DNA from: a virus
Length of the DNA: 64,000 bases
Virus record (IMG/VR): IMGVR_UViG_3300029911_000010
Location: 40,428-104,427 of that record
Reading direction: 5' to 3' (one strand)
Shown here piece after piece: positions 1,343-59,445 of this stretch. A model generated the notes under the pieces. It did not search any database. It saw only the letters and a list, made by a program, of their open reading frames with translations, and had not been told where the DNA came from. Both the position numbers and the translations under genes were made by a program. The first letter of the stretch is position 1, and each line of letters begins with the position of its first letter.

Positions 1343-1394
1343 GATAGTCCTCCGTGACAAGTTACAGGCCCGATCCTTTCAGGCCACTGCATGA

Positions 1395-1424
1395 ATATTA
1401 ACCGGCAGGGGGCAGGGGATGCAA
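1395..1424 (-). promoter_or_regulatory. Sigma70-like promoter
   Basis: TTGCAT-18-TAATAT upstream of 896..1342 and just downstream of a terminator. Confidence 0.5.
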
Positions 1425-1463
1425 GCGCCGATGGTTTACAAAGGTTGTTTTGCGATAGCTAAA

Positions 1464-1489
1464 GAAAAGCCGCCGGGTGGCGGCTTTTC
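1464..1489. terminator. Bidirectional intrinsic terminator
   Basis: GAAAAGCCGCC-GGGT-GGCGGCTTTTC. Confidence 0.75.
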
Positions 1490-1572
1490 GATGATGATCA
1501 CTTGTCAGGTGACGAATCTGTCGGATGGGATGAATCTGTCGGACGGGTGGCAGAGTCGACGACAACAAAAGG

Positions 1573-2190
1573 TCAGTCGTTTTCGACTTTCGTATCATCC
1601 AGCACGTCGCTTCCACATACCGGACATATATCGTCTTCAGCGCCAAGCGTGAAATCGCAAGACGTGCAAACCCTGCCGCCGTGCGATTTTGCCGCCGTAC
1701 GATTGAGTTCAGTGTCGGCAATGTATCTCTCGCGTGATCGTCTGTGCATCTCGTCGTAGCAGCTGCACGGTTCCAGCGCTGCGTACCTGTTTGCCGCGAT
1801 ACAGCCGGGACATCGGTAATAATGCAACGGCTCTGCACCGTAGGAGGATACACGTTGCAGTATCGATAAAATGCGCAACTGCGGAGTATCGACGCTGGTG
1901 ATCACGCTATTGAAGTAAGCTGATTTCACCAATCCTTCAATTTTCATCACTTCGTTGATCATCATCAGATAGAAAGCGACGCAGCATTCAGGCACGTTTG
2001 AATGCAAACCGCACGTCGCGTCGTGTACCGTCTTGGGATCGTTGGTTGATAGTCCGAGACGACGTACCAGATCGACGCCTTCGGGGGATGACTTGAAATC
2101 GAATTTATATTTCTTCACGGGAAACTCCAGGTTAGTAGTCTTTGTGGTCGCAAAGCCAGTCGACAACATGAGACGCGTGCAGACACTCAC
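1573..2190 (-). CDS. Cys-rich hypothetical protein (zinc-ribbon-like C-terminus); start uncertain
   Basis: CPGC, CSC, CTSC...CPVC motifs. Confidence 0.55.
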   Translation of the reverse strand: MSVCTRLMLSTGFATTKTTNLEFPVKKYKFDFKSSPEGVDLVRRLGLSTNDPKTVHDATCGLHSNVPECCVAFYLMMINEVMKIEGLVKSAYFNSVITSVDTPQLRILSILQRVSSYGAEPLHYYRCPGCIAANRYAALEPCSCYDEMHRRSRERYIADTELNRTAAKSHGGRVCTSCDFTLGAEDDICPVCGSDVLDDTKVEND

Positions 2191-2386
2191 AATCTACTAC
2201 TTCGCCACTGGTTCCGGAATAGATTGTGACATCACACATTTGGGTCTCGTAGTTTAATCTGACCGTGAACAAACACGGATGCTCACGCGGTGTGACAAAT
2301 GTTCCAGCCATGTCGCAAGCTACGTGTGAAAGCAAATCAAAATTAGGTTCTTGCATGATGCCTTTGGGTTGAATGACAGGGGTCAA
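2132..2386 (-). CDS. Hypothetical protein
   Basis: ATGA-coupled to the upstream ORF. Confidence 0.5.
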   Translation of the reverse strand: MTPVIQPKGIMQEPNFDLLSHVACDMAGTFVTPREHPCLFTVRLNYETQMCDVTIYSGTSGEVVDCECLHASHVVDWLCDHKDY

Positions 2387-2610
2387 TTGTTATCGTTTTC
2401 TGGTTCTGGTCCCCATTCCTCGGTGTCGGGGCCGATCAGTTCCAGGTTGGGGAGAGCGTCGAGGTTTTCCATCCGCTTGCCGGTTACCTCGCGGATGGCA
2501 TTGCGAAGTTTGCGGGCCAGCTGCCGGTAATGCTTGTAAGGCGGCTGCGACTCCAAGGATTTGATCAGCTCTTTCACAACCGGGCCGGGAATCTTGGCAT
2601 AGCTCTTCAT
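2383..2610 (-). CDS. Hypothetical protein
   Basis: AAGGAG SD; 75-aa helical protein. Confidence 0.6.
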   Translation of the reverse strand: MKSYAKIPGPVVKELIKSLESQPPYKHYRQLARKLRNAIREVTGKRMENLDALPNLELIGPDTEEWGPEPENDNN

Positions 2611-4613: not shown

Positions 4614-5552
4614 TCAGACAAAGTCCGCACGGGCCAGCCCTGACGTGAAGCCAATCGTGCCGCCCATGGTCTCATAGGCGAAAAATTCCAACATAAAGGC
4701 TTCGCGCCTAATGTACATAGTCGTGTCTTCAAGCACATAGGACTTGCCGATGAACTTGGGATCACTGAACATGTACATCGTGTTGGTCGGGACCAGACCC
4801 TTCTTGATCGTGATCACCCAGGTCTTGCCCATGAACTCCTGGAGCGTCCAGCCGTTCTTCATGATGTCCTGAGACAGGTCGCCACCCATCTCGTTGCGGC
4901 CGAACTTGCACACATCCTTGATCGTGATGTGGTTGATGAGGATCGTGTGGACCTCCAGCGAGCTGGGGGTGTTGGGCATGATCTTCATCGCATCTTCCAG
5001 CGTATCGCGGGTGATGCCACCGGCAATCACTTCGTACTGGACGACGCCGCTGGTCGGGACAACCAGGCCGGGGCCGACGATCGCGGTGTTGATGGCGCGG
5101 ATGAATTTAGAATCTTCCTCTGCCAACATGTCCTTGATCGCGTTATCACTGAGCACCTGGCGGATGTCCATGATCCAGGTCCGCAGCTCGTCCACGTCTT
5201 TGGTGAAACGGGGCGTGACGATACGGTCGAACATGACGCGGTAGCGGGGACCGCGAATGTACAGGTTCTGCGGCAAGGTCGCGAACGCGATGCTGATGGC
5301 AGCAGGCGAATTCGGTTCCTTGTCGACCACCTTGACCGGCTTGTCGGTGTCGACCTGGCGGTCCAGCTCATCGTTGCCGATGGGCGTGGCCGGCAGGATG
5401 CGGCGGTAAAAGCCGTCTTCACGCATCTTCGTACGCGTGAAGTCGTTGATGGAATCTTCGGCCTGTTTGATCAGGCCGTTATCACGAGAGCCAAGCTGCT
5501 GAAAAAGCGTTTGATTCAGCAGCTTAGTTTCTTCGGGGGAGAGCTGAACCAT
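4614..5552 (-). CDS. Major capsid protein (HK97 fold)
   Basis: 312 aa; DELRTWIMDIRQVLSDNAIKDMLAEED resembles the strand plus spine-helix pattern; strongly biased codons; order protease-scaffold-decoration-capsid. Confidence 0.8.
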   Translation of the reverse strand: MVQLSPEETKLLNQTLFQQLGSRDNGLIKQAEDSINDFTRTKMREDGFYRRILPATPIGNDELDRQVDTDKPVKVVDKEPNSPAAISIAFATLPQNLYIRGPRYRVMFDRIVTPRFTKDVDELRTWIMDIRQVLSDNAIKDMLAEEDSKFIRAINTAIVGPGLVVPTSGVVQYEVIAGGITRDTLEDAMKIMPNTPSSLEVHTILINHITIKDVCKFGRNEMGGDLSQDIMKNGWTLQEFMGKTWVITIKKGLVPTNTMYMFSDPKFIGKSYVLEDTTMYIRREAFMLEFFAYETMGGTIGFTSGLARADFV

Positions 5553-5557
5553 TTTTA

Positions 5558-5600
5558 GATCCTCCGTGATCAGTTAAAAGTCACCGCCATCCTTGGCGGC
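5558..5600 (-). promoter_or_regulatory. Two CsrA-type hairpins in the capsid leader
   Basis: GCCGCC-AAGGAU-GGCGGU (5583-5600) and GAUC-ACGGAG-GAUC over the SD (5558-5571). Confidence 0.7.
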
Positions 5601-5621: not shown

Positions 5622-6164
5622 TTAGGCGCTGGGGGGCAGATACACAGGCCAGAAGGCAACCGCCTCATAGCCATAACCGTTGTCGACCAATCCACGCGAC
5701 ACAACGCCGCAGATCGTGTTCGTGCCGAGCGTGCCCGGCGTGAGCATACCTGCCAGCACCGCACCGCTGTTGACCAGGGGGCTGGTCAGGTGGGTGTTGG
5801 GCGGGTAGGTCTGGGTGTCGTCGTAGTTGGTCGAAACCAACTCGTAGGCACCGACCGCGACCAGGAACATCAGCACGCCGGTCGGATTGATGGCAATGAA
5901 GACGTCCTTGGTGGTCGCAGCATCACCGCCGTCATTCTGCACGTCGGGGTCATCCGACGCCTGGAAATTGAACAGCGGCATGACCGGACTGTTACCCACG
6001 CCCAAGACCGCGTAGCCATTGGCATTCAGGGAGCAGCAAGCCCCCGGCGGCACACGAGTCTGGACGGACGGATCGAACTTGCCCTCGAAATCGAGAGCAT
6101 TGGGACGCGGCCAGCCCTTGAGGGGGTTGAGCGTCTGGGAAGTCATTTGACGAGGAGCAGCCAT
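5622..6164 (-). CDS. Capsid decoration/cement-like protein
   Basis: Start re-called at ATG 6164 (leader nearly identical to the capsid leader); beta-rich 180 aa immediately upstream of the capsid gene. Confidence 0.6.
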   Translation of the reverse strand: MAAPRQMTSQTLNPLKGWPRPNALDFEGKFDPSVQTRVPPGACCSLNANGYAVLGVGNSPVMPLFNFQASDDPDVQNDGGDAATTKDVFIAINPTGVLMFLVAVGAYELVSTNYDDTQTYPPNTHLTSPLVNSGAVLAGMLTPGTLGTNTICGVVSRGLVDNGYGYEAVAFWPVYLPPSA

Positions 6165-6169: not shown

Positions 6170-6211
6170 GATCCTCCGTGATCAGTTGGAAACGAGCCAT
6201 CCATCCTTGGA
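6170..6211 (-). promoter_or_regulatory. Two CsrA-type hairpins in the decoration-gene leader
   Basis: UCC-AAGGAU-GGA (6200-6211) and GAUC-ACGGAG-GAUC (6170-6183). Confidence 0.65.
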
Positions 6212-6234: not shown

Positions 6235-6699
6235 TTATCCTTCTTTGTTGACGAGCCGTTCGAGACCAAGCCCGTTGAACAAACGACGATCGGAATCCAT
6301 CATGTTCGACGTGTGAGCGCCGACCACGACGGTGTTTGGAAGCTTTTCCAGCAACACCGAGCCGCCGTCAGATGCCTGCTTCTCGGCGGCACCCAGGCGA
6401 TCCTTGGGATGGGCGGATTTGAGCTGTGCCAGTTCGGCTTTGGCTTCCGCCAGCTTGGTAACGGCCGAACCGAGGATGGCCAGCGTTTCGTTGTGGCTGG
6501 CCAGCTTGGTGGTCATCGTGTCGGTTTGATTCTTGCCGAGAACGCCGGAATCGACCATCTGCTGGACGAGTCCGGGAATCCGCTCGGCGGCGGTCTTCTG
6601 TGCTCCGCGAATCTCCGTGACTTCGTCCACTGCACGCTTACCCAGCGCACTGGACACTTCTACGAAGCGGAGCATGTTGTTTGCGAGTTCGGGTTTCAT
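6235..6699 (-). CDS. Coiled-coil head assembly protein (K-x-A motifs)
   Basis: Start at ATG 6699 after GGAGG; KTAA, KLAS, KLAE, KSAH, KQAS. Confidence 0.6.
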   Translation of the reverse strand: MKPELANNMLRFVEVSSALGKRAVDEVTEIRGAQKTAAERIPGLVQQMVDSGVLGKNQTDTMTTKLASHNETLAILGSAVTKLAEAKAELAQLKSAHPKDRLGAAEKQASDGGSVLLEKLPNTVVVGAHTSNMMDSDRRLFNGLGLERLVNKEG

Positions 6700-6735
6700 T
6701 GTGACAGCCTCCATGCTGCTTGTTGGGTTGATTTC

Positions 6736-8064
6736 TTACCGGACAGCCGCTGCAGCGGCTTGCTTTTGACGGCTGCGGCCGATCACCTCAACGAGATAAG
6801 CTCGGGCCGCCTGCTTAACTTGTTCGCTGACACCGGCGTCAGCGGCTGCCACCTGCATGCCTGGAGGCGGGCCACCGGCTCCCGGAGGAGGGCCACCCAT
6901 GCCTGGAGGCGGGCCACCGGCTCCCGGAGGAGGGCCACCCATGCCCGGAGGGCCGCCAGCGCCTGGAGGCGGGCCACCGGCCCCCGGAGGGCCACCGGCA
7001 CCACCGCCGCCGGCCTGTTCTTCCTGGTAGGCCTGCATGAACTGCTCGGGCGTGATGCCCATCTGTTGCAGCATGGCCATGATTTGTTGAATATCGCCGC
7101 CACCGCCGCCAGAAGGGTCATCGCCGCCGGAGGGATCGCCGCCCGGAGGCGGGCCACCAGCGCCAGGGGGAGGGCCGCCCATGCCGGGAGGGGGAGCGCC
7201 GCCGCCTGCGGGATCTTCGTCACCGCCGGGAGGAGGAGCGCCGCCGCCGTCTTCGCCCTTGCCGTCGCCGCCGGCCTTCACCCGCTGCTGCACACGCTGC
7301 TGGCAGTAGTTAATGACGCGATCGGCATCGGATTCGGCTTCCTTGATGATTTCCACCAGGGTGTCCTGCACCATGCGGTCGGCGGCAGCCTTGTCCATCG
7401 TGCCGTCGATCAAGCCGGCCAGTTCCCAGCCTGCCTGGCGGCTGAGTTGAGGATTGACCGGTTGAGCCACCTGCTGGGCAGTCTGCTGGGGCTGGGCAGC
7501 TGCGCCTTCCTTGGTGACGTTGGTCTGCACTTCATTGGCGATCTGGGCACAGAGAAGCTCACCCAACGAAGAGATCTCGCCGGCCAGCTTCTGCAGCGGG
7601 TCATTGGCCAGATCGGTGGCGTACTTGCCGCCATTGAGTTCGCTGTTGTCGGTGCGGGCCGGATGGGTGGTGGGCTTCTTGTAGCCCTTGTCTTCCTTGG
7701 TGGTCTTGGTCTTGGGCACGTCCTCCCCGGTCGGCGTGGCTCGAAGCCCAATGTTGTACTGGTCGGCCTCGGCAGTCCCCGGCTCACCTACGCCACCGGA
7801 CTTGGCAGTGCCGGCTTCGGGTGTGGAGTCGACCGAGGGCTTGCCCTGGTCGGCCTTGACGTCCTTGGTGTTCTCGGCCGAGCGGAAGCCTTCTTTGGCT
7901 TTCTCGGTCCGGTCGTCGACCTTTTTCACGGGGTGAGTGGTTTCGCCGCCGATGCTTCCGGGTTCAGTGTGAGCCTCGGCAGTCTTGGCAATCGTTGAAG
8001 CGGCGCTGGATTCCACGCGAGCAAGATACGCTTCGATCGTGGAAAGCTGGTGTTGAGCAGACAT
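6736..8064 (-). CDS. Putative scaffold protein with Gly/Pro-rich tract
   Basis: Lies between protease and capsid genes; low complexity; many K-x-A motifs. Confidence 0.6.
   Translation of the reverse strand: MSAQHQLSTIEAYLARVESSAASTIAKTAEAHTEPGSIGGETTHPVKKVDDRTEKAKEGFRSAENTKDVKADQGKPSVDSTPEAGTAKSGGVGEPGTAEADQYNIGLRATPTGEDVPKTKTTKEDKGYKKPTTHPARTDNSELNGGKYATDLANDPLQKLAGEISSLGELLCAQIANEVQTNVTKEGAAAQPQQTAQQVAQPVNPQLSRQAGWELAGLIDGTMDKAAADRMVQDTLVEIIKEAESDADRVINYCQQRVQQRVKAGGDGKGEDGGGAPPPGGDEDPAGGGAPPPGMGGPPPGAGGPPPGGDPSGGDDPSGGGGGDIQQIMAMLQQMGITPEQFMQAYQEEQAGGGGAGGPPGAGGPPPGAGGPPGMGGPPPGAGGPPPGMGGPPPGAGGPPPGMQVAAADAGVSEQVKQAARAYLVEVIGRSRQKQAAAAAVR
6856..6939. repeat. 42-bp tandem repeat (GGPPPGAGGPPPGM), with degenerate copies to about 7240
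   Basis: 6856-6897 is identical to 6898-6939. Confidence 0.85.
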
Positions 8065-8110
8065 CCTTGTCTCCTAAAATTGCATCCTGCTGATCGGCCG
8101 AGGCTCGGCC

Positions 8111-12427: not shown

Positions 12428-13481
12428 GTTGGTCCTCCTGACCAGTCGGCTTTCTCGGCGCTGGCAATGCCAGTTTCTCGATGCCGTCCATTGTACGCGG
12501 TTTTCGCCCAGACGAAAGTTCGAGCATTTCGTGGGTACGCAGCTCTGCGGCCGCGTCGTCGTAACGTTCCACCGGTTTGCCAGTAATCAGCTTCCTGCCC
12601 TTTTCACCGACCGCCCAGTTCAATCCTTTGAGCGTGGCGGCGATGTTGCTGAGCAGCTGGCTTTGCGGCACACCGTCGCCAGCCGCCGCTTGTTCCATGG
12701 TCTTGATTTGTATATGCACCTGAAACAGATCCATGACATTGAAGCGATTGACTTCGAAATTCTGCGCAGCCATCGCTGAGCGGTGCTTCAAACGAGTAAA
12801 CGTATGATTGTCCAACCACGGAGCAACGTCGTCCTTGCCCTGGGCGATTACGCCTTTGTGGAATCCGCACTGCAGGATGTAGTCCAACACCGCAGGCCCG
12901 CCGAAGTAGGCGAACATTTTGGTCGTCGGGTCGAAAAACGGTTCACTCAGCGGCGAGCGGCTGAACGTCATCATCTGCGGATTGTCGGGGTCATTATTGT
13001 TGTTGCGCTGCGGCTGATTCATCGTTTGATCCAGCCCGGCGTTGATGGCGGCTTCGTACGCCGGCATCAGCACGCGGTCGACAATCCAGCCGGTGTTTTT
13101 CAACCGCCCACGCACGTCGAAGAACATGGCGGAATACCACCGAATCATCTCCGGTCGTGTACCCAGCTCGTCGGCGATGACCTGGTCGGTACAGCCGTTG
13201 AGAATGCGGGACTCGATGATAGTGATCATCCGGTTGTTGACCTGCTGCTCGGAGTACAGCTGGTAAGCCAGGAAGACCCCCAAGTCGCGCCAAGCCAGCT
13301 GCTCCCGCGTAGCCTGATCAGCCGAGCGGTATCGCAGCACGAATTCCCTGAACCGTCGGACGTACTCGTCGTCGCTCTTGACGCATCGCTTGACCGGCGT
13401 GTTGTCGATCATCTGCAACACACGATCAAACCGCCACCCTGGCGGTCGGAACGGACTGAATCTGTGAAACCTGACTTGCAC
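12402..13481 (-). CDS. Hypothetical protein (possible HTH segment)
   Basis: 359-aa ORF; DQVIADELGTRPEMIRWY. Confidence 0.6.
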   Translation of the reverse strand: MQVRFHRFSPFRPPGWRFDRVLQMIDNTPVKRCVKSDDEYVRRFREFVLRYRSADQATREQLAWRDLGVFLAYQLYSEQQVNNRMITIIESRILNGCTDQVIADELGTRPEMIRWYSAMFFDVRGRLKNTGWIVDRVLMPAYEAAINAGLDQTMNQPQRNNNNDPDNPQMMTFSRSPLSEPFFDPTTKMFAYFGGPAVLDYILQCGFHKGVIAQGKDDVAPWLDNHTFTRLKHRSAMAAQNFEVNRFNVMDLFQVHIQIKTMEQAAAGDGVPQSQLLSNIAATLKGLNWAVGEKGRKLITGKPVERYDDAAAELRTHEMLELSSGRKPRTMDGIEKLALPAPRKPTGQEDQHADAQQGS

Positions 13482-14464: not shown

Positions 14465-14722
14465 TTGTGCTGGCCTCCGTGCCAGTGAAAGTAAAATGCG
14501 TCGGCAGCTTCGATAAGCGGGCCGCGAATTTCAGGGTGCAAATCCTTGAGTCGTTTAGACGACTTCTGACAGTTACAGGCTCGACACAACCGGACAGCGT
14601 TACCGGGTTTCAAGCCGTTTCCTCGCGATAACGGTCGAACGTGATCGGTACAGGTCGCGGTTGCTTTGACGTATGACGGTCAAACGGCTGTACCTATCGT
14701 TGAGCAGGTCTAGTGCTTGCAT
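14461..14722 (-). pseudogene. Internally deleted, frameshifted HNH homing endonuclease remnant
   Basis: Frame A gives MQALDLLNDRYSRLTVIRQ; a shifted frame gives DHVRPLSRGNGLKPGNAVRLCRACNCQKS through to a stop at 14461. Confidence 0.7.
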
Positions 14723-17451: not shown

Positions 17452-17487
17452 TGCTTTCCGTCCGTGAAAAGGGCATCAGTTTATTTC

Positions 17488-23595: not shown

Positions 23596-23606
23596 GAATG
23601 AACTCC

Positions 23607-24601: not shown

Positions 24602-24643
24602 GATTCGCTTCCTTGCGAAAGTTACCGTCCGTGGACGTATTTT

Positions 24644-38901: not shown

Positions 38902-41532
38902 TTAGATGTCCTCGTGGCGAGCTAAAAAAGAGGGGGCACGCAACGCCCCGCTGGCTAGTTGTTCCTGGGCACGAACGCGGGCGACACGGCCAATCCAGTC
39001 ATCTGGATTAGCTGCCATGTCAGCCAGAGTCGCGTCGTCAAAGCCAGTGCCGACCTTGCCGACCGGTTCACCACCAGGCTGCAAGCTGTACTGAAATCCG
39101 CCGACCGTGCTGGCCCGCCGGCCTTCGCCAGGGAAAAAACTGTGAATGTGAACATCGTGGTCCTCGGTCAGCTTGCTCTTCATCGGCTTGCCGTGCGTCG
39201 GATGGATCACCACACCTTCACGGGTCAGGGGATTCTTGCCACCGGCGATGTCCTGCCACATCTGCATCGCCTTGCCCGGCTCAGCCTCCTGGCTCAGGTG
39301 GAATCGCCCCGGAGCTGCTGCTTCAAGAAGCGGCAGAATCTCGCCCAGCATAGCACGACGCTCAGCGTAAGACGTTTGATCAAAGTCAACCGGATGCTTC
39401 CCGACTTGCTGGACGTCAAAGAGGGCGTTTCGCAGTTGTATTTTCCGATCTCTTTGCTGGGCAATGGCATTCGCGGGAGTGGCATTGAGGATGCCACCGA
39501 GTTCGGACGGGTGTATGGCTGTTTGCACAGTGTCGGATAGTAATGGGTCTCCCGGATTATCTGCCCCAGCTTCTCCGCCACCGGGCTTGTCGCCTTGTCT
39601 AACGCCGTAAAGTTCACCCCTGAGGACTGATCCAACCAGATTCGGCGGGGTTTGTATTGCTGGTCTGCCATGAAAGAACCTCTCCGTGTGTAAAATGGGC
39701 CGGCCTGTCTGCTTGCTCTGTCGGTAACTGGTCAGCTCCACGCCATCCTTGAGCAACTTGATCAAACTAGAAGCCCCGTCAATCTTAGCCTGCACGCTGG
39801 CAGCCGGATCTAACTTGGACAACGTCTGCTCGATCTGGTCGGCGGGGATCTTGGTGTAGTGAATCTTCTGATACGGCAGTGACTGCGACGGCGTGGTGTT
39901 GATCATCAGCCAATCACGGTCACGCTGGCCGTGCCACTTGGTCAGCATGAAGCGCTCGGGGTGCTTCTTGTCCATCCGCGTGAAGTGAATCTCACCGGGG
40001 GACACCTTGGTCAACATGATCTGGCCGCTGTCGTGTTTCTTAACAGAGCCGCCGCCGTAGCGCCCCAGGGGAATGTCGCCCTCGAAGTCCTTGTAGCCGT
40101 AGCGATGCACGGGCTGCTGCACCGCCAGGATGCGCTGGCCCGGCTCTGGAAGCTCATTGCGGGTCGCCCACGAGTACAAGCCGGTATCCGGGGTGCCGAA
40201 GCGAAAGTCGTAATGCGGGCCAGCCTTCTGCGCCAGGTGATGCTGGATAACCAAGTCGTGGTTCTGACCCGGCTGCAAGGCGTCCCAGTCGCCAAAGTTC
40301 TGCCGGCTGGGCAGGCCGGGAGCGGCGTCGGCTTTCTTCTCGTGCTTTTCTTCGTCGTCCGGCTCGTCTTCCTCCAGCTTGACGTCAGCCTCACGTCGCA
40401 TGATATCCGGCACGGGCGTCTTGGCCGGTACGTAGGGCTTGAATCCCAGCGACGTGTAGAACGCTGCTAACTCTGACGTGCCCAGCGCCTTGTCTTTGTA
40501 CGGGCCGACGTGCAGCTCCAGCGGCTTGTGGCCGTAGGCGTCCAGAACGTGTTCCATCAGCTTGCGAGCCAGTCCCTTTTCACGATGACGCGGCGAAACG
40601 TACAAACCCCTGATCCATCCGGCGTCGTGGCCGGGGACGTCCATTACAGCGACACCGCCGATCTCCCGTCCGTTGCGGGTGATGTCAAACCGGTGCTCGG
40701 GTCCGTGCTGAGCGAAGTTGTCCCGGTAGTCTCCGAAGCGATATTCTTCCGCAAAAGTTGATTTGCTTTTGTCAGCAGCCACTTTCTGGTTTCCGGCGTC
40801 GGCGAAATCTTCAAGGTCGAAAAGATCTGATCCGCCATCGGTTCCAGCTGGTCCACACTGCCTGCCATATCCGCTATCACCTGAGGGATGTACATCTGCA
40901 GCCTTCTTCCTGTATTTGGCGAACATGCCGTCTTCGATTTCACGCGTCGTGTCGGCGTGCTCCAGCCACCATTTGAACTGCGGCATCGTCAGTGAGTAGA
41001 TCGAACCCAGCCCCTTCCAGCCGTCCTCGTAGTTCTCCAAGTACAACCGGCGGGCCTGGTCCTCGTTGATAGCGCCGAAGATAACCTTGTGCTCGTCGAA
41101 GTCTTTGGTGCCGGGGTCAACCTGGTTGACGACGAACACCAGCTCGCAATGCGGGTGCTGATCGCCGATGAACACGTCGACATGATCCTTGTCCCGCCCC
41201 TCAGTGCCCAGGATGTAGCCATAGTGGCTTTTCATCTCCTGAGACCATTCCTTGCCGTCTCGGCTCTTGCCGCTGCGGGTGGAGCCCTTGGGATTTTCAA
41301 TGGAGATGGTCAGCCCGTGAATGTTGAGCTTGCCCTTGGCGTAGTTGCCCGCCTCACGCTGAGCTTCGGTAGGCTCGGTGTCAGTCTTGGCAGCGGCCCG
41401 GTCGATGCGATCCAGGTAATCCGCCAGCTCGCGATTGGCGTGCTGGGCCTGGTCCACCGTGGTATCGGGCACAACCGTTACGCGAATAATACGATGTGAA
41501 ACGCTCAGAATGCTGGTCGGCGAATCTTCCAT
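38902..41532 (-). CDS. Polyvalent protein: InPase-like + GNAT + LigD-type phosphoesterase + ATP-dependent DNA ligase
   Basis: GNY.KG...IENPKGS.R...YGYI..T.G.D.DHVDVFIG...DEHK; GLYVSPRHREKGLA; QHH.A...HYDFR..SWA..H..Y.FEG; KIDG, GELY, FDV, EGVV, GKVGTGF, LRAPSF. Confidence 0.85.
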   Translation of the reverse strand: MEDSPTSILSVSHRIIRVTVVPDTTVDQAQHANRELADYLDRIDRAAAKTDTEPTEAQREAGNYAKGKLNIHGLTISIENPKGSTRSGKSRDGKEWSQEMKSHYGYILGTEGRDKDHVDVFIGDQHPHCELVFVVNQVDPGTKDFDEHKVIFGAINEDQARRLYLENYEDGWKGLGSIYSLTMPQFKWWLEHADTTREIEDGMFAKYRKKAADVHPSGDSGYGRQCGPAGTDGGSDLFDLEDFADAGNQKVAADKSKSTFAEEYRFGDYRDNFAQHGPEHRFDITRNGREIGGVAVMDVPGHDAGWIRGLYVSPRHREKGLARKLMEHVLDAYGHKPLELHVGPYKDKALGTSELAAFYTSLGFKPYVPAKTPVPDIMRREADVKLEEDEPDDEEKHEKKADAAPGLPSRQNFGDWDALQPGQNHDLVIQHHLAQKAGPHYDFRFGTPDTGLYSWATRNELPEPGQRILAVQQPVHRYGYKDFEGDIPLGRYGGGSVKKHDSGQIMLTKVSPGEIHFTRMDKKHPERFMLTKWHGQRDRDWLMINTTPSQSLPYQKIHYTKIPADQIEQTLSKLDPAASVQAKIDGASSLIKLLKDGVELTSYRQSKQTGRPILHTERFFHGRPAIQTPPNLVGSVLRGELYGVRQGDKPGGGEAGADNPGDPLLSDTVQTAIHPSELGGILNATPANAIAQQRDRKIQLRNALFDVQQVGKHPVDFDQTSYAERRAMLGEILPLLEAAAPGRFHLSQEAEPGKAMQMWQDIAGGKNPLTREGVVIHPTHGKPMKSKLTEDHDVHIHSFFPGEGRRASTVGGFQYSLQPGGEPVGKVGTGFDDATLADMAANPDDWIGRVARVRAQEQLASGALRAPSFLARHEDI

Positions 41533-41553
41533 GACTAAATCATCCAGCTCACC

Positions 41554-41581
41554 TTGACTTCACCTGTTCGGGTGATATCAT
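41554..41581 (+). promoter_or_regulatory. Sigma70-like promoter of csrA with palindromic operator in the spacer
   Basis: TTGACT-TCACCTGTTCGGGTGA-TATCAT (TGn extended -10). Confidence 0.65.
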
Positions 41582-41626
41582 ACTGACCGTTCATCGAAGT
41601 CAAACCTCTATCGAAAGGAGTCGATC

Positions 41627-42055
41627 ATGCTAGTTCTCAGTCGCAAGCGTGACCAGGCCGTCCGAATCGGAAAAGACATTCGCGTCATGGTCACCGACAT
41701 TCGCGGTGACAAAGTTCGTATCGGTACGAACGCTCCACCGTGCTACAGAGTGTACCGCAAAGAGATCTACGATGGAATCCTCAGGGAAATCGCAGCCGGC
41801 GGCAGCCCTCCGGAAGAGCGGATCAAGTCCGGCGCTGGCCAATTGGTGCTAAGCCGCCAGCGTGACGAAAAGCTGTACGTCATCGATCCGGCCGACTGGA
41901 ATAAGCCCCTGGTCAGCATCACGGTAGTGGATATTCGCGGCGATAAGATACGTCTCGGCTTTGAGGCAGACAGATCGCTTGACGTGGACCGCGAGGAGGT
42001 CTATAAGTTGAAATCAGCCGGAGCCGATGCGAAAGCAGGCCAAACGGCGGTCTGA
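41627..42055 (+). CDS. csrA: Tandem two-domain CsrA/RsmA translational regulator
   Basis: MLVLSRK...IG.DI.V.V..IRGDKVRIG..AP....V.R.EI, then a second QLVLSRQ...ITVVDIRGDKIRLGFEA.....V.REEV; AAGGAG SD. Confidence 0.92.
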   Translation: MLVLSRKRDQAVRIGKDIRVMVTDIRGDKVRIGTNAPPCYRVYRKEIYDGILREIAAGGSPPEERIKSGAGQLVLSRQRDEKLYVIDPADWNKPLVSITVVDIRGDKIRLGFEADRSLDVDREEVYKLKSAGADAKAGQTAV

Positions 42056-42080: not shown

Positions 42081-42115
42081 CACCCTGGCGCTTACAACGC
42101 CAGGGTGGTTTGTTT
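42081..42115 (+). terminator. Intrinsic terminator after csrA
   Basis: CACCCTGGCG-CTTACAA-CGCCAGGGTG followed by GTTTGTTT. Confidence 0.75.
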
Positions 42116-42205: not shown

Positions 42206-42757
42206 TCATGCAGCCGTCGTATCCTTGGCTGTATCCGTACGCCCCAGCACGCCCCTCTTCCTTATCGCAACTGTCACATGAAAATCGTATTTCCCCTCGT
42301 TAGGCAAACTGCTTAAGCCGTAGCTGCGCCGCAACTCCTGCAACTCCGGTGAATGCACCCGCAGTATCCAGCACTTAGCCACATCAGGCCAGCCAGCCGG
42401 CTCCAGCTCCATTAGACGGCCGATGGTGTAGGTGAACGTCTTGCCGCGATCGTTGAGCAGCTTGTCAGTCCCGCCGATGATGGAGATATCCTCGGGGCGG
42501 AACACAGTGATGTGGGCGTCCAGCTTGCCTTCGTGCAGCGGCAGCTCGATGCCGGTTTCGTCCATGGCATCAAAGATGCCGCGAACCATGGCATTGGGCA
42601 CCGACAGCAGGCCGTAGGGCTTATCGCGGTGCTGGGCGACGTACAACCGGCCTGACAGGTTGTAGGCCGGCACCTGGTCATTGGCAATCTTCTCGCCCAG
42701 GCGGTACGCCTGGTTGTGCCAGTAACTGAAATTGTCGATGGGGCTCAGAACGCTCAT
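42206..42757 (-). CDS. 2H phosphoesterase family protein
   Basis: Two HxT motifs, AHITVF and FHVTVA. Confidence 0.8.
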   Translation of the reverse strand: MSVLSPIDNFSYWHNQAYRLGEKIANDQVPAYNLSGRLYVAQHRDKPYGLLSVPNAMVRGIFDAMDETGIELPLHEGKLDAHITVFRPEDISIIGGTDKLLNDRGKTFTYTIGRLMELEPAGWPDVAKCWILRVHSPELQELRRSYGLSSLPNEGKYDFHVTVAIRKRGVLGRTDTAKDTTAA

Positions 42758-43351: not shown

Positions 43352-43398
43352 GGTCACTCCTTTGACCCAACCTCAGTTTGTACCCTGTCTTAGATTGC

Positions 43399-49509: not shown

Positions 49510-49725
49510 GGCCGGCTCCTTGAACAACTGAGGTTAGTCTGACGGGGCAAGCGTCCATTCTTGCCTGCGGCTCAGCCACGTTCTTCCGTCAGAAAACCCT
49601 CAGCCGACATCGCCGTGGCGCAAAACAACTTTTGTCATCCTTAACTTCTTCCGCCACACGGCGGGCAACGGAAGAACGGCAGCGCTTGAAAATCTAAATT
49701 AGCAGCTCACAGTTGTCAATAGCTT

Positions 49726-54400: not shown

Positions 54401-54573
54401 TCCCACGGCTCCAGATCCTCGCGGCGGTCGCCAATGGGCACAAACGACCGCAGCAGGCGTCCGGGAATGCCGGGGCTTGCGCCGGCGGCGGCCTTGGCCA
54501 GGGTGTCGTATGACTTCTTGTACTGATGGCGTGGCAGCCGTGCAATGCGGACAGCCTGGCTGGTCTCGGGCAT
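51481..54573 (-). CDS. Large glycine-zipper putative ejection/internal virion protein
   Basis: Start at ATG 54573; several GxxxG helices, a small Zn ribbon, a Pro-rich tract, K-x-A motifs. Confidence 0.6.
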   Translation of the reverse strand: MPETSQAVRIARLPRHQYKKSYDTLAKAAAGASPGIPGRLLRSFVPIGDRREDLEPWEKARVEQGQSNWMPDIIQDDATPIPNMMASPGKQGLLKALLMGGLGAGVGALGGNIAGGHTGAGAAIGGGLGGLYGLGTGYLDQHHKNDDLTEVMRRMPPGSTKRDLDNERMLDTAMTSRFKTGGHEGENCPHCGASMERGDDGNCNRCGKPWPEHRKSAFALSPFAAGFLHGCFERGMSLHQTADTIVKLAAVMEPSAIDELLDGLEQLEKAASEFGAIAKEGPALVEGAKGLFGAGEETKGLGGMGEAGKGMASGMQEALKTRPPASMLYGANPLPKMNLEPPVAPSRGLYTPPRMRPQPSPQPRPVAESVMPAPSRPSAPSTGRLGMPGEAELPPSPGSPPAPAPAPAPAPAGETAAAATPAGETPAPAPGTPVKPPMTAMQRAKQVGNVGMSAAQTLFGGYAGQSTGAELGKDFGDVDPNTGQLQHELMWRGLGGLTGAAAFNPAVGRQMEGAAGASGLRRMLTNPYLRTANTAMLSNFTGSSLDKLFPNQTGGNAQKAMTLGGLAVGAGTSGLRALAPENKALQSFNQATHDFAMGSTLGYTNPAEVASTLAGSANRLRGGLGQISKAVAPNSGFTKAIGAEGPVAKTLDWVRAGTGGMEAGTPTSLMRNLGRGTNLAALTATGVGSAYDLHQRAARAVEVAKQHGMSAAQWNDSVTQQLGNIQNASGPGVNPEMKTQVAMSSGMLTPGDIQQANGDPNKLLEAARRNAQDQQTALQGKPLPGEDPNAAATAVRNQAYGPIRMTEAAGGPAFDAFDKVKPTAGDFMSGVKNIWSLATDPAKRQMASDISAAQQNDPEAIKRLANSSLVKQLAPQIMASAGGSDPVVASLGKELAAYRGGDDAAGERITNIIKSDPKMTQLMAKAMTGGAGGATAIVGLMSFLDPMLKQLGFNKNNSWEPAQKITAVLGLIMSLAGLAFGAGGAPGIGGALGGAGALGLSAALAPEYGGKQWDIWHGGNPWGPTPAPKS

Positions 54574-54585
54574 CCTTGCTCCTTT

Positions 54586-54641
54586 GCCGCCCATCCATGA
54601 GCGACACAGACCATATTACTCCCCAGACGGTTTCTCGACAA
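54586..54641 (-). promoter_or_regulatory. Promoter plus CsrA-hairpin cassette, copy 1
   Basis: TTGTCG-17-TAATAT then GUCGCUC-AUGGAU-GGGCGGC. Confidence 0.55.
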
Positions 54642-55588: not shown

Positions 55589-55646
55589 TGCTGCTCGTCC
55601 GTGAGCGGCACAGATCGATATTACTCCGCAGAAGGTTTATCGACCA
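55589..55646 (-). promoter_or_regulatory. Promoter plus CsrA-hairpin cassette, copy 2
   Basis: TGGTCG-17-TAATAT then GCUC-ACGGAC-GAGC; similar in sequence to copy 1. Confidence 0.55.
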
Positions 55647-56628: not shown

Positions 56629-56837
56629 GTCAGTATCTCCTTTTCGCGAATGAAATGCTTGCAGACCTTGCCGCAGCCGTCATGATCACCTAACACGTCG
56701 CGAAAAATGAGGTCGCACTTGCCGCAGCGCTCACACCAACCGCCCGGCATGGACCAGCAATGCAACCCCAGCCAGCAAGGCGACCAGGGATGATGACCGG
56801 CAATGAACAGGTACAGCTGGTGAAACAGGTATCGCAT
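56625..56837 (-). CDS. Small Cys/His-rich protein
   Basis: C..GLH.W....CERCG. Confidence 0.5.
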   Translation of the reverse strand: MRYLFHQLYLFIAGHHPWSPCWLGLHCWSMPGGWCERCGKCDLIFRDVLGDHDGCGKVCKHFIREKEILT

Positions 56838-56845
56838 GGCTCACA

Positions 56846-57799
56846 TCATACAGCGGGCACGGCTGCCTGCCCATTACCGTTGTAACTTGGTGTTCCAGTA
56901 TATCCCTCGGACAGCTTTGATCGTTGAAACGCAGAATCGGTCTTGCGCCGGTTAATCATCGCATCCCGCATCCTCTGTCGTCGCTCGGGAGTCCAGGAAG
57001 CCCGCTGCTTGGCCCGGCCGGCTTCCTTACGAGCTTGCTTATCCGCTGTCTCCTGCGCTGTTGGGTCACGCCGGGGTGATTCAGGCTCGGTCTCAGACTC
57101 ACGCTCACGCGGAATAGGCGGCGAACGATACGGCAAATCAGGATGGGCCAGATGCCCGTTGATGGTGACCTGCCCGACCGACAGGTGCTTGCGGCTTCGC
57201 CCCAGCGCCAGCTCGTCAACCAGGGCGTCGTCGGCTTCCTGTCCGATACTGCCGGCTGCCTTCTCTATAGCCTGCTGTGCGCTGACCATCAGGCCGCGAT
57301 CTTGAGGTGAGACCACCAGACGCTCCAGCAGGCAACTCAACACCTGCAAGCCGCCGTTGATCACCCGCAGAACGTTGGCCCCGGTCAGGCGAGTCAGCTC
57401 CAGTTGCGACCCGTCGTGGTAGTATCGCACGAGCATGTTGACGTCCAGCGGGATGTCGCCACGCTCGTCCGTGTAAGGCGGGGCTTCCAGCACCAGCTTG
57501 GCAGGCTCGGGCTCGTCCACCGCCTTTACCTCCACGGCAGCCGGCGGGTTGTACGGTGCAGCCAGCGGGTGGATTTCGCCCTTGGGCAAGGGAACCACGG
57601 CGGGAACCGGGGAACCGACAGGGAAGAAAGGGAACATCAGCGGCTCGTTGCGCTGGTTCTCTCGGGCAAAGCCGTGCAGCTCATTGACAAACTGCATCCA
57701 CAGCGCTGCCAGCTGCATGGGCACCTGGCAGTCCACCTTCTGCATCAAGATGGTATAGGTGGCAATGACGTCTTCCAGCGTTTGATCTTCCTTGACCAT
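56846..57799 (-). CDS. Hypothetical protein with NUMOD-like basic tail
   Basis: WTPERRQRMRDAM. Confidence 0.55.
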   Translation of the reverse strand: MVKEDQTLEDVIATYTILMQKVDCQVPMQLAALWMQFVNELHGFARENQRNEPLMFPFFPVGSPVPAVVPLPKGEIHPLAAPYNPPAAVEVKAVDEPEPAKLVLEAPPYTDERGDIPLDVNMLVRYYHDGSQLELTRLTGANVLRVINGGLQVLSCLLERLVVSPQDRGLMVSAQQAIEKAAGSIGQEADDALVDELALGRSRKHLSVGQVTINGHLAHPDLPYRSPPIPRERESETEPESPRRDPTAQETADKQARKEAGRAKQRASWTPERRQRMRDAMINRRKTDSAFQRSKLSEGYTGTPSYNGNGQAAVPAV

Positions 57800-57815
57800 G
57801 ACGATCTTCCTTGCG

Positions 57816-58106
57816 TTACTGCCCGTTGGGCTGCATGGGGGTTGTCGGAATCAGCTCGAACGTGACATAGCGGCCCTGACTCGCGACATTCCACTGCACT
57901 TTCCAGTGCTCACTGTACGCCTTGGTGATCCGGTCCTGCAAGCACAAGTTGGGCACGATGCCGCACCGGACAATATCAAGAGTTCCGCTCAACGCTGGAA
58001 TGGGATGATTGTCATCCTCGTTGAACAAGGCGTCCAGCTGAATGTCGATGAAGTTGGTGATGTGCTCGAAGGCGTCATCACCGGTGCATTGAAGTGGCGT
58101 GATCAT
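57816..58106 (-). CDS. Hypothetical protein
   Basis: AGGA SD. Confidence 0.5.
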   Translation of the reverse strand: MITPLQCTGDDAFEHITNFIDIQLDALFNEDDNHPIPALSGTLDIVRCGIVPNLCLQDRITKAYSEHWKVQWNVASQGRYVTFELIPTTPMQPNGQ

Positions 58107-58126
58107 GTTGTTCCTGATTAAACTGG

Positions 58127-59428
58127 TTAAGACTGCAAAAGAGGTTTAGAACTTACGGGTATCAGCTTGGTGACCTTGCGAACCGGCCGGCGGCGCAGCT
58201 CCTCGCTCAACGTGGGCTTTAGCTCGGCGGCAAGCTTGGTCACGCCGCCGGGCAGCAGATCGTTTAACACCGCTGCGACTATTTCCGGGGTAAGGTCATG
58301 GGCTTCGTCAAATAAAAGACTAACCCTATGGTTCAGCGGGTTCGACTGCTGATAATGACGCAAAACATCGGTCAGAGTAGCGCCGGCATCACCCAGGCTA
58401 TCGTTGGATTCTACCGGCGGCGCGGGATTGGCGTCTGCATCGGCCACGGCGTCAGGCAGGGCAGCCGGCGGCATGATCGGCGGCACCCAGCTGTCTTCAC
58501 GCATCCGGGCACGGGTGAAGTCATTGACTATCTGGTCTGCGGCGGCAGCCATGGAATCCTGCTCGGCCACCATCTCACGTATTTCTTGCGCTGGGTCGAT
58601 GCCCATACTGTGCAGGATAGCTTGCTCGTTGTACTGCCGAAGGCGATCCACGTACTCCCGCGACGCTGCTCCGCCGTCGCGGTTAGGCATCCCGAGATAT
58701 TCACGTACGAACGCATCGCCGTTTCGATTGATGTACGGCGTGCCGATATGGCTACCCTGACCGGTCGTTGAGACACCAACTGAACCCTCGGGACCTTGCG
58801 GGCCTGGATCTCCCGGCGGCGGCTCAATGTACGCAGTCGGCGATATTGACGAAAACGGGATAATCGTCTGTTCGGGTCTTGGCCGCATGCGAGTGGTCAT
58901 CGTGCGGATGGCTGCCCCGCTGACGCCGTCGATGGCGTACTGGCGGATCTCGTTGAGAATGCTGCGGTAGTAGCCGGCGTAGTAGCTCACGTCGTCGGTG
59001 TCGACGCCGCTGTCCTGAACGCCGCAGCCTCGGGGAAGGTAAACCTGACGTCCACTGTCAGGCCGATCGTCGTTCTCCAGTGACATTGTCGCCGCCCGCC
59101 AGGGCAGCCAGTAATGCCGGTAGATCGGGCCGTTAGCCGACAGGTTGCAGTTGAACGCAGGACGCCACAGACGCGGCAGATCACGCGGCCCCCACAGCAG
59201 CTCGTGAAAGTTGCCGTTGAACCACAGATCAGGCACGCCCATCAGGTTGGTCATGGCCTGGTACAAGTTGGAAGCCGAGCCCGGCGCAACCGTTCGCAGA
59301 CCCCACCACGGATTGAGATACAGATCATGGCCGACCTGGTTGCTGTACTCCGTAAGCGAGTCGTGTGTTTCAGACCGATACAGCAACGACTGAGCTGGTG
59401 ATTGTCGAGCTGGGGGTGCTTCGCTCAT
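58127..59428 (-). CDS. Mosaic hypothetical protein containing a capsid-like fragment
   Basis: NDFTRARMRED versus capsid NDFTRTKMRED; GGAGG SD. Confidence 0.65.
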   Translation of the reverse strand: MSEAPPARQSPAQSLLYRSETHDSLTEYSNQVGHDLYLNPWWGLRTVAPGSASNLYQAMTNLMGVPDLWFNGNFHELLWGPRDLPRLWRPAFNCNLSANGPIYRHYWLPWRAATMSLENDDRPDSGRQVYLPRGCGVQDSGVDTDDVSYYAGYYRSILNEIRQYAIDGVSGAAIRTMTTRMRPRPEQTIIPFSSISPTAYIEPPPGDPGPQGPEGSVGVSTTGQGSHIGTPYINRNGDAFVREYLGMPNRDGGAASREYVDRLRQYNEQAILHSMGIDPAQEIREMVAEQDSMAAAADQIVNDFTRARMREDSWVPPIMPPAALPDAVADADANPAPPVESNDSLGDAGATLTDVLRHYQQSNPLNHRVSLLFDEAHDLTPEIVAAVLNDLLPGGVTKLAAELKPTLSEELRRRPVRKVTKLIPVSSKPLLQS

Positions 59429-59445
59429 ACATCCTCCATGATAAC

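Follow-up and report, generated by a model that had tools for sequence, protein, structure and literature searches.

Introduction

RegA of phage T4 is a translational repressor whose targets are the ribosome-binding sites of several mRNAs of the same phage. Its fold is unrelated to that of CsrA, and it recognizes AU-rich single-stranded sites on early mRNAs. In the CsrA-FliW-Hag system of Bacillus subtilis, CsrA controls translation of the very abundant, self-assembling flagellin via two sites, one of which is a Shine-Dalgarno (SD) hairpin. Homologs of csrA are found in about 1.2% of phage genomes (PMC7366521). Knockdown of gp28, the CsrA homolog of phage PTXU04, gives small plaques (PMC11879866), and RsmQ of plasmid pQBR103 rewires host translation (PMC9928087). 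The SELEX consensus of CsrA is RUACARGGAUGU, in which ACA and GGA are invariant and GGA lies in a hairpin loop (PMC4347634).

Here we describe an uncultured jumbo phage that probably controls its own translation, since it has its own CsrA as well as CsrA-site-shaped hairpins on its ribosome sites. A first-pass annotation of this DNA knew of no described equivalent, and within the paper collection that we searched we likewise found no published combination of a phage csrA with covarying operators on the phage's own genes.

Results

The window analyzed is a 64-kb stretch (positions 40,428 to 104,427) of the IMG/VR record IMGVR_UViG_3300029911_000010, and all coordinates refer to it. The 104-kb record covers about 47% of the approximately 200-kb phage genome. 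By homology to Salmonella phage Arash, the phage encodes its own multisubunit RNA polymerase. A recognizable family is missing for most of its genes. The family comparison comprised 81 loci and 60+ relatives, and 15 relatives were near-complete (at least 90% complete); hairpin counts in relatives were taken from 21-kb capsid neighbourhoods.

The first-pass annotation had listed 19 hairpins presenting GGA in the loop. All 19 sequences are present at the positions given (Table 1). The csrA site is on the plus strand; the others are all on the minus strand, the coding one. Six of them have stems of only 2-4 bp and 0 to -0.6 kcal/mol when folded alone. When the strength of a site was taken as the free energy of its listed sequence folded alone, 11 of the 19 were robust (-2.7 to -11.2 kcal/mol) and the others marginal or barely hairpins. 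The site at 12430-12444 was ruled out as an A-N-GGA loop, its loop being an AGGAG pentaloop. Two sites were not counted, 54570-54579 with its 2-bp stem and 41523-41536, whose AUG starts the 876-aa gene. The start codon itself also lies inside the loop or stem at 8059-8072. At 6200-6211 the listed stem has only 3 bp; in the MFE fold an additional A-U pair forms, and the loop shrinks to the tetraloop AGGA. The pair closing the loop is most often C-G. In five leaders another hairpin, not on the SD, lies 23-56 nt upstream, and a repeated element of approximately 45 nt has copies at the 54586-54605 and 55589-55610 hairpins.

Table 1. Hairpin sites and csrA-associated features in the window. Energies are for the listed sequence folded alone.
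Position	Strand	Feature	Energy (kcal/mol)	Remarks
1347..1385	-	Dual site, leader of 148-aa gene (896-1342)		Two sites, spacing 23 nt
1347-1358	-	GUC-ACGGAG-GAC, weak SD site of 148-aa gene	-0.6	Barely a hairpin
1367-1385	-	GGCCUGA-AAGGA-UCGGGCC, leader of 148-aa gene	-10.5	Robust
5558..5571	-	GAUC-ACGGAG-GAUC, SD of major capsid protein gene (4614-5552)	-1.9	Marginal
5583..5600	-	GCCGCC-AAGGAU-GGCGGU, non-SD, capsid leader	-11.2	Robust; 27 nt from SD GGA
6170..6183	-	GAUC-ACGGAG-GAUC, SD of 180-aa gene (5622-6164) upstream of capsid gene	-1.9	Marginal
6200..6211	-	UCC-AAGGAU-GGA, weak upstream site, leader of 180-aa gene	-2.0	Marginal
6705..6718	-	CAGC-AUGGAG-GCUG, SD of 154-aa gene (6235-6699)	-3.6	Robust; hairpin in 4/8 orthologs
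8059..8072	-	AGAC-AAGGAU-GUCU, over start codon of 442-aa gene (6736-8064)	-3.0	Robust; SD hairpin in 6/26 orthologs
12430..12444	-	UGGUC-AGGAG-GACCA, SD of 468-aa gene, GGA in loop	-5.2	Robust
14470..14485	-	CUGGC-ACGGAG-GCCAG, SD of 202-aa gene (13856-14464)	-6.9	Robust
17455..17470	-	CUUUUC-ACGGAC-GGAAAG, SD of 908-aa gene	-0.3	Barely a hairpin; hairpin in 6/26 orthologs
24604..24619	-	UUCGC-AAGGAA-GCGAA, SD of 237-aa gene	-4.8	Robust
41523..41536	-	AGUC-AUGGAA-GAUU, at start of 876-aa gene	-0.1	Barely a hairpin
41554..41581	+	Predicted sigma70-like promoter of csrA (TTGACT, 16-nt spacer, TG, TATCAT)		10/12 positions, extended -10
41610..41625	+	AUCGA-AAGGAG-UCGAU on csrA SD, candidate autoregulatory operator	-2.7	Robust
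41627..42055	+	csrA, 142-aa single chain, two tandem CsrA domains		Pfam PF02599, 3e-32
42081..42115	+	Terminator-like hairpin and T-rich tail 3' of csrA (CACCCTGGCG-loop-CGCCAGGGTG-GTTTGTTT)		Read from sequence
43352..43367	-	GGUCA-AAGGAG-UGACC, SD of 129-aa gene without assigned function	-4.9	Robust
54570..54579	-	GC-AAGGAU-GC, 2-bp stem	-0.2	Barely a hairpin
54586..54605	-	8-bp hairpin, AUGGAU loop, leader of 1030-aa gene	-10.0	Robust
55589..55610	-	UGCCGCUC-ACGGAC-GAGCAGCA, leader of 160-aa gene	-8.5	Robust
59430..59443	-	UAUC-AUGGAG-GAUG, marginal, SD of 433-aa gene	0.0	No stable fold alone; barely a hairpin

In the whole 104-kb record, the loop is closed by four or more Watson-Crick pairs at 10 out of 40 ANGGA SD sites, compared with 0.4 in flank shuffles that keep the hexamer fixed. 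This is the enrichment over SD-preserving controls that the first-pass annotation had proposed as a check. Allowing one G-U pair raises the number to 13 SD hairpins (binomial p = 2e-11). ANGGA sites within coding sequence and on the antisense strand showed no excess over background. The hairpins are strand-biased (34 on the coding strand vs. 3 on the opposite strand) and sit at a fixed position, the SD distance from start codons. None of the 89 ANGGA-SD sites in six other phages (338 genes), three of which carry csrA (F116, PSTCR8lys, and 219E41.2), forms such a hairpin (Fisher p = 3.4e-6), while the 81 loci of the phage family contain 144 hairpins against 6.6 expected. MFE folds of 81-nt leaders gave no significant excess of SD-in-loop structures (10 vs. 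7.5 ± 2.2). The A-N-GGA(N) hairpins on ribosome sites are a real, selected class.

The stems vary and covary among relatives while loop sequence and size stay constant; the first-pass annotation had noted, from this one genome, that stems differ from site to site around a constant loop. At the capsid-gene hairpin, pairing is 74.7% across 60 distinct relatives, compared with 55.7 ± 2.0% in shuffles (0/500 as high); cells changed on both sides number 60 vs. 22, and the covariation score is 0.426 vs. 0.151 (0/500 as high; slid controls at most 0.24). Compensatory changes were seen also at the upstream neighbour of the capsid gene (ortholog alignment A2), with 74.9% vs. 58.1% paired and a covariation score of 0.452 vs. 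0.209 (0/500 as high). Conservation throughout the family is concentrated on these two genes (81/138 vs. 38/589 for all others). A hairpin comparable to the upstream non-SD hairpin of the capsid leader was found in only 6 of 69 distinct relatives.

The consensus of the family hairpins is AACAnGGAGGT, and its ACAnGGAGGU part matches the SELEX consensus of CsrA and the CsrA/RsmE recognition motif at the sequence level. Conservation of the A that stands two bases ahead of GGA is at least 90%, and the base adjoining GGA on the 5' side was counted as C (24), T (21), or A (9). As an SD extension would fix A beside GGA, the free base there indicates that the motif is that of CsrA, and the earlier claim that an SD alone does not explain the loops is borne out. 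The non-SD hairpins, considered in leaders that contain an SD hairpin as well, have stems of 7-9 bp (5 bp in the capsid leader) and carry the same loop, mostly A(C/A)GGAU, which by its sequence is the CsrA optimum. Many stems are worth only -0.1 to -3 kcal/mol, which is more in keeping with an element clamped by a protein than with a structure that stands on its own.

The phage csrA predicted in the first-pass annotation was confirmed. It is the only plus-strand gene in its region, and the PF02599 match in its product comprises two stretches. Aligned to solved CsrA chains, domain 1 keeps LVLSRK and R-K-E-I-Y, domain 2 reads LVLSRQ ... VDREEVY, and both keep the beta1 L-x-L-x-R motif and the Arg44-type residue, so that the key RNA-binding residues are intact. 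The best PDB matches of an AF2 model were CsrA chains (rmsd 2.6-2.8 Å over approximately 54 residues), with weak Foldseek E-values. Early expression of csrA by the host RNA polymerase is plausible because in the 104-kb record only one other intergenic site matches as well as its sigma70-like promoter. The terminator-like hairpin downstream is absent from the consensus-scan listing. In the closest relatives the csrA SD hairpin has compensatory stems, TCGA/TCGA, TGGA/TCCA, and CAGG/CCTG, the last read by eye.

PF02599 was detected in 14 of the 15 near-complete relatives. The fifteenth encodes a 129-aa protein that falls below the Pfam threshold but is homologous to domain 2 (pairwise E = 9e-8), bringing CsrA-like genes to 15/15. 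Relatives G011-G013 carry csrA twice and lack strict hairpins, and incomplete relatives without a detected csrA have 1-3 hairpins. Hairpin number in the 21-kb capsid neighbourhoods did not follow csrA detection, copy number, or type.

The proposal that the hairpins mark virion genes was only loosely upheld. Csr-type hairpins are carried also by csrA and by genes without assigned function, and within the genome the enrichment of virion over non-virion leaders is weak (10/57 structural-module genes vs. 4/50 elsewhere, p = 0.16). The product of the 908-aa gene has a homolog in phage Arash whose annotation is structural. No Pfam or PHROG match was found for the 237-aa gene or for the 5622-6164 gene, earlier labeled 'decoration'. 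Besides csrA, the predicted targets comprise the major capsid gene with its upstream neighbour, genes that are sheath-like or tube-like, and some ten more.

Discussion

We favor, with moderate confidence, the reading that the hairpins are CsrA-type translational operators; from it we infer that the hairpins are bound, by which protein, with what effect on translation, and when. The GGA core of the SD, presented in the A-N-GGA-N loop of a short stem, would be clamped by a CsrA-family protein that competes with the 30S ribosomal subunit. The binder is most likely the phage's own tandem CsrA, apparently transcribed early by the host RNA polymerase from the sigma70-like promoter, and the same operator on the csrA mRNA would make autoregulation possible. 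One bivalent CsrA could bridge an SD hairpin and the non-SD hairpin upstream. The outcome would be repression, lifted once abundant late mRNAs titrate CsrA, and such titration would amount to threshold or dosage control and not to a simple clock.

Alternatively, the same operators could be read mainly by host CsrA. The phage protein would then act chiefly on host mRNAs or compete with host CsrA, and the late mRNAs of the phage would be tuned to, or sponge, the host Csr state. The motif is the generic bacterial CsrA consensus, the number of hairpins does not follow phage csrA copy number or type, and for CsrA homologs of phages and plasmids the general proposal is that their targets belong to the host (PMC7366521; PMC11879866; RsmQ, PMC9928087). 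We nevertheless consider this explanation unlikely, in view of the CsrA-like gene in every near-complete family member and the same, compensatorily changing operator on the csrA mRNA. The bacterial bins (MAGs) holding related contigs disagree among themselves on taxon, pointing to no single host and hence to no particular host CsrA.

Quite unlikely, in our estimate, is a design of the ribosome site that needs no protein, in which an SD in a loop or a 5'-proximal stem maximises initiation or mRNA stability. The likeness to CsrA sites would be convergent, as any SD in a hexaloop resembles one. Such an efficiency element also predicts the observed concentration of conservation, the steadiest carriers being two head genes regarded as the most highly expressed. 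The anti-SD sequence of the 16S rRNA tail is the textbook basis on which G17 and T18 of the 3' arm would also extend SD pairing, and the csrA-carrying phages F116, PSTCR8lys, and 219E41.2 lack the hairpins. However, many stems are too weak alone and not dominant in longer folds, and within the loop conservation falls on the A two before GGA rather than on the neighbouring base, which SD pairing would favor. The non-SD upstream hairpins carry the same loop, reading ANGGAU; csrA, presumably without need for maximal expression, has a hairpin; and none occurs in four unrelated phages with a GC content of 53-63%.

Operators for a different phage RNA-binding protein, a RegA-like or coat-protein-like repressor to which csrA is unrelated, would find room among the many genes without a recognizable family. 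This is very improbable, since every position of the loop and its closing pair agrees with the CsrA consensus and csrA, with the same operator on its own leader, makes a second binder unnecessary. Action on DNA, at sites of a dimeric DNA-binding protein or at hairpin promoters of the phage's own multisubunit RNA polymerase, would suit inverted repeats but is disfavored and hardly credible, given the strand bias, the fixed SD distance, and arms that covary around a conserved spacer, the opposite of a protein-DNA operator.

Returning to the CsrA-operator reading, the candidate sites resemble those of translational repression by RsmE at hcnA (structure PDB 2JPP) and by CsrA at glgC (Pseudomonas and E. 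coli) in the A-N-GGA-N loop over the SD with a C-G closing pair, in additional upstream GGA sites within bridging distance, and in the presence of a CsrA-family protein that keeps the beta1 and Arg44-type residues. They differ in that the candidate targets are the virus's own structural genes, the virus itself encodes the regulator as a single tandem chain, the SD sites have G and not U after GGA, and Rfam revealed no CsrB/RsmY/RsmZ-like sponge RNA. The abundant structural protein with two candidate leader sites recalls CsrA-FliW-Hag; in contrast to that system, no FliW homolog was found in the record or in five near-complete relatives, and a coupling of phage CsrA control to assembly, by analogy, would be pure speculation. 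PTXU04 gp28, the rsmM-type gene of F116, and RsmQ of pQBR103 are likewise CsrA-family genes on mobile elements, but their products are thought to act on host mRNAs. F116, PSTCR8lys, and 219E41.2 have no hairpin-presented ANGGA on their own genes, unlike the jumbo phage with its covarying set, and thus a phage csrA alone does not imply a self-regulon. As a phage-encoded regulator proposed to act at its own ribosome-binding sites, the jumbo phage CsrA would be comparable to T4 RegA, with the difference that its sites are GGA hairpins on late structural genes.

Shine-Dalgarno hairpins in the phage leaders

The first-pass annotation had listed 19 hairpins with GGA in the loop at ribosome-binding sites, and all 19 sequences were found where it had placed them. 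Eleven gave isolated folds of -2.7 to -11.2 kcal/mol, three folded at about -2 kcal/mol (the hairpin on the Shine-Dalgarno (SD) site of the capsid gene, the twin of that hairpin at 6170, and site 6200), and five were essentially unstable alone (sites 1347, 17455, 41523, 54570 and 59430). Two of the weak sites, 41523-41536 and 54570-54579, were not counted as hairpins, and the loop at 12430 is AGGAG and not A-N-GGA. In the whole record, 13 SD hairpins and five leader hairpins present GGA in an A-N-GGA loop with the consensus A[C/T/A]GGAG. The loop A of the SD hairpins lies 11-16 nt ahead of the start codon, so the elements overlap the SD/start region as a translational operator does. Minimum free energy (MFE) folds of 81-nt leaders contained no significant excess of SD-in-loop structures, and the SD hairpin of the major capsid protein (MCP) gene was missing from one such fold. 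That many stems are weak is in keeping with an element clamped by a protein.

Enrichment was assessed for the 110 genes called in the whole record. ANGGA motifs at SD distance were counted when a 5- or 6-nt loop was directly flanked by at least four Watson-Crick pairs, and in the null the eight bases on each side were shuffled while the hexamer was kept. Ten of the 40 ANGGA-SD sites in the 104-kb record formed hairpins versus 0.4 in these SD-preserving shuffles. When one G-U pair was permitted, the count rose to 13 SD hairpins (binomial p = 2 × 10−11), and looser criteria agreed, with stems of at least five pairs in 20 leaders versus 7.0 ± 2.5. Intragenic and antisense ANGGA sites formed hairpins at the rate expected by chance. 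The same pipeline found 0 of 89 ANGGA-SD sites in hairpins (Fisher p = 3.4 × 10−6) in six other phages, namely D3, RSL1, Arash and the csrA carriers F116, PSTCR8lys and Vibrio 219E41.2. Over 81 loci of the phage family, 144 hairpins were observed versus 6.6 expected, and stems of at least five pairs occurred at 16.2% of SD sites versus 1.4% in coding sequence. A bias towards virion genes, as initially proposed, had the right direction in this genome (10/57 in the structural module versus 4/50 elsewhere) but was weak (p = 0.16).

The phage and its relatives

The virus record comprises 104,427 bp, of which the 64-kb window is the final part; its completeness is about 47% (CheckV), and nearly all genes are carried by the minus strand. 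The closest deposited phage is Salmonella phage Arash, with an MCP identity of 29%, and megablast against deposited phages returned nothing nearer and no close cultured relative. IMG/VR contained 108 relatives with MCP identities of 61-87% on contigs of up to 235 kb, some with terminal repeats, which makes the record a fragment of an uncultured jumbo-phage family of about 200 kb. No tRNA genes were found in the window, and the hairpin-bearing genes had almost no Pfam or PHROGs matches. Three large proteins match RNA polymerase genes of Arash, and the phage thus has its own multisubunit RNA polymerase, split in pieces. The features are collected in the table.

Features of the window and of one relative (last line)
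Feature	Position	Strand	Description
MCP gene	4614-5552	-	matches phrog_2522
Upstream neighbour of MCP	5622-6164	-	180 aa
RNA polymerase-like genes	17521-31158	-	1655, 1004 and 1140 aa; match Arash 'DNA-directed RNA polymerase subunit beta' genes (tblastn 3e-28 to 4e-86)
Multidomain protein gene	38902-41532	-	876 aa; InPase (1e-54), GNAT acetyltransferase, LigD 3'-phosphoesterase and ligase OB-like domains
csrA	41627-42055	+	142 residues, two CsrA domains
CyVA-1 RNA (RF02965)	42131-42208	-	full-length Rfam match, 47 bits vs gathering score 41.4
Structured leader	49510-49725	-	~190 nt, before a 134-aa gene
Sigma70-like promoter	49719		TTGACA, 17-nt spacer, TAGATT
Repeated element, two copies	54586-54630 and 55589-55635	-	~45 nt, ahead of 1030-aa and 160-aa genes
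CsrA-like gene of G014	L132:1252-1641	+	129 aa

Conservation and covariation of the stems

For the alignment of MCP leaders, 60 distinct relatives were used and the loop served as anchor. Around the family consensus AACAnGGAGGT the stems varied widely (GATC/GATC, GCAC/GTGC, TTTC/GAAA, AAAC/GTTT, TAAC/GTTA, GGAAC/GTTCC, GGAC/GTCC and AGAC/GTCT). The covariation score was 0.426 versus 0.151, with 0/500 shuffles as high, and controls with a slid partner stayed at or below 0.24. In the five-pair helix 74.7% of the cells were paired versus 55.7 ± 2.0 in shuffles, and both sides had changed in 60 cells versus 22 in shuffles; neither value was reached in 500 shuffles. The upstream neighbour of the MCP gene, in an alignment of its own, likewise scored 0.452 versus 0.209 (0/500 shuffles as high), and the stems of the two genes are different in one and the same genome. 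By ortholog group, SD hairpins were present in 42/69 MCP leaders and 39/69 leaders of the upstream neighbour, versus 38/589 for all other groups pooled (p = 1 × 10−40). The hairpin structure is thus maintained by selection, as expected of a CsrA-type mRNA operator.

The phage CsrA

The csrA product matches PF02599 with E = 3 × 10−32 and 110.8 bits (cut-off 27) in two stretches of a single chain, which places it in the CsrA family, and CsrA chains in the PDB match it at 1e-8 to 1e-10. Domain 1, aligned to solved CsrA, has LVLSRK ... VYRKEIY; the sequence of domain 2 reads LVLSRQ ... VDREEVY. Of the RNA-binding residues of the family, in beta1 L-x-L-x-R(R/K) and the beta5 Arg44-Glu-Ile region, the L-x-L-x-R motif and the Arg44-type residue are conserved in the two domains. 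CsrA is usually a homodimer of chains of about 55-75 aa, and the phage protein is a fused variant that might fold as an intramolecular pseudo-dimer; its single-sequence AF2 model (pLDDT 70) had CsrA chains as the top structural matches. The gene is a stand-alone plus-strand unit with a terminator-like hairpin 3' of it and a sigma70-like promoter (10/12 positions plus TG); the 104 kb contain only one other intergenic promoter of this kind. The SD of csrA lies inside the hairpin AUCGA-AAGGAG-UCGAU, which is retained in the closest relatives with the stems TCGA/TCGA, TGGA/TCCA and CAGG/CCTG. The gene of the 876-aa multidomain protein is divergent from csrA.

Of the 15 relatives with a completeness of at least 90%, 14 have a PF02599 match. 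The exception is G014, a complete genome with terminal repeats, in which no CsrA reaches the Pfam level. It encodes a protein that has 30% identity to domain 2 of the tandem CsrA (pairwise E = 9 × 10−8) and shares the insertion, so that the family includes a divergent CsrA-like lineage; a similar 140-aa ORF occurs in the relative G009. The closest relative, G001, also has a two-domain single-chain CsrA (163 aa; L095 and L111 denote the same locus). In G007 (L096), G020 and G028 the csrA match lies within open frames of 113-174 aa, but the ORF scan of G007 gave a 58-aa csrA only, and the remaining relatives have an ordinary CsrA of 57-78 aa, sometimes as two genes. Among the relatives, no link of hairpin count to the presence of csrA was seen, a test of little power because nearly all complete genomes have csrA. 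G011-G013, with two csrA genes, lack a strict hairpin in the MCP neighbourhood.

Candidate binding partners of the hairpins

Judged from sequence, the hairpins are somewhat more likely than not translational operators of the CsrA type, and the protein that acts on them is most likely the tandem CsrA of the phage itself. The original observation is confirmed, and its interpretation as a phage CsrA regulon timing virion-protein synthesis is supported in part. The CsrA of the host might bind the hairpins instead, which we consider unlikely. The MAG labels of family contigs (L120-L129) are uninformative about this host, because they disagree completely: the bins belong to eight unrelated phyla or orders (Nanopelagicales, Nannocystaceae, Gemmataceae, Phycisphaerae, Zixiibacteriota, Bdellovibrionales, Methylococcales and Saccharibacteria), most likely as a result of mis-binning.

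Alternatively, the hairpins could be a design of the ribosome site that is independent of any protein. That the hairpins cluster on the two head genes of highest expression would also be expected of a pure expression-optimising element, but the loops make this explanation improbable. The conserved loop base is an A two positions 5' of GGA (at least 90%), while the base adjoining GGA is C in 24, T in 21 and A in 9 cases, and pairing with 16S rRNA would fix A. In the SELEX consensus of CsrA, RUACARGGAUGU, ACA and GGA are invariant and GGA lies in a hairpin loop (PMC4347634); the family consensus has ACA, GGA and the next G and U in common with it. Five leaders of this phage (tube-like, sheath-like, a 148-aa gene, MCP and its upstream neighbour) contain a second, non-SD hairpin, with stems of up to 9 bp and loops that are mostly A(C/A)GGAU, the CsrA optimum. 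The spacings are 23, 27, 29, 43 and 56 nt, all within the distance over which CsrA is said, after Mercante et al. 2009, to bridge to a second site (about 10-63 nt). Among the relatives, an upstream second site at the MCP gene was seen in only 6/69 versus 2.4 ± 1.4 by chance, which weakens the CsrA reading. A DNA-level operator was dismissed, as strand bias and a conserved spacer with variable arms rule against it.

The repeated element consists of ACCkTCTGsGGAGTAATATsGwTCTGTG and, after it, an 8-bp hairpin whose loop is AYGGAY, and looks like a duplicated promoter-plus-leader unit.

Antagonists and other RNAs

A search for Csr/Rsm antagonists yielded neither FliW nor a sponge RNA with multiple GGA motifs in the record, which represents about 47% of the genome and had no strongly GGA-dense intergenic region. 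The Rfam scan of the window returned CyVA-1 only and no CsrB/RsmY/RsmZ-type RNA. CyVA-1 lies 76 nt past the csrA stop, convergent with csrA, and its conserved apical loop is GAAGGAGAA. As a family-level partner RNA it was rejected, since 27 related phage records lack it, as do the csrA neighbourhoods of 20 relatives. The promoter at 49719 is, besides that of csrA, the only strong intergenic sigma70-like promoter. The structured leader behind it (z = -2.26) holds four ANGGA motifs versus about 0.9 expected; it is unconvincing as a sponge RNA in spite of these values, but may be one more target of CsrA or may serve in titration.

A possible regulatory circuit and comparison with known systems

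More tentatively, and with considerable doubt, the family may have a private, self-contained circuit. A single-chain CsrA with two non-identical RNA-binding faces would be made early by host transcription and would bridge the ANGGAU hairpin and the ANGGAG SD hairpin on each major virion mRNA. Synthesis of capsid, sheath and tube would be kept below a threshold until late transcripts out-titrate CsrA, the structural mRNAs acting as their own sponge without an sRNA antagonist. If true, no virus-encoded CsrA regulon on viral structural genes would precede this one, and, tandem forms having been surveyed within the phage family, the protein would be the first tandem CsrA in nature. Confirmation of the candidate operators would in itself extend the gene-expression programmes of jumbo phages by a post-transcriptional layer and would show that a global bacterial regulator had been converted to viral autoregulation. 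The single-chain CsrA and the short RNA operators that match it might also yield orthogonal translational switches.

In agreement with the first-pass annotation, which knew of no described equivalent, the literature, the coverage of which was incomplete, yielded no report of a phage with CsrA-type operators on structural genes of its own. The plasmid-encoded RsmQ acts on host mRNAs (PMC9928087). Among 2,517 phage genomes csrA was catalogued in 30 (about 1%), and its role was termed obscure (PMC7366521). Knockdown of the csrA homolog of phage PTXU04 resulted in small plaques, its role in the phage life cycle being previously untested according to the authors (PMC11879866). To the question of what CsrA does in phages, the present family gives a concrete, testable answer in the form of a defined, covarying set of candidate operators on its own capsid, tail and csrA mRNAs.
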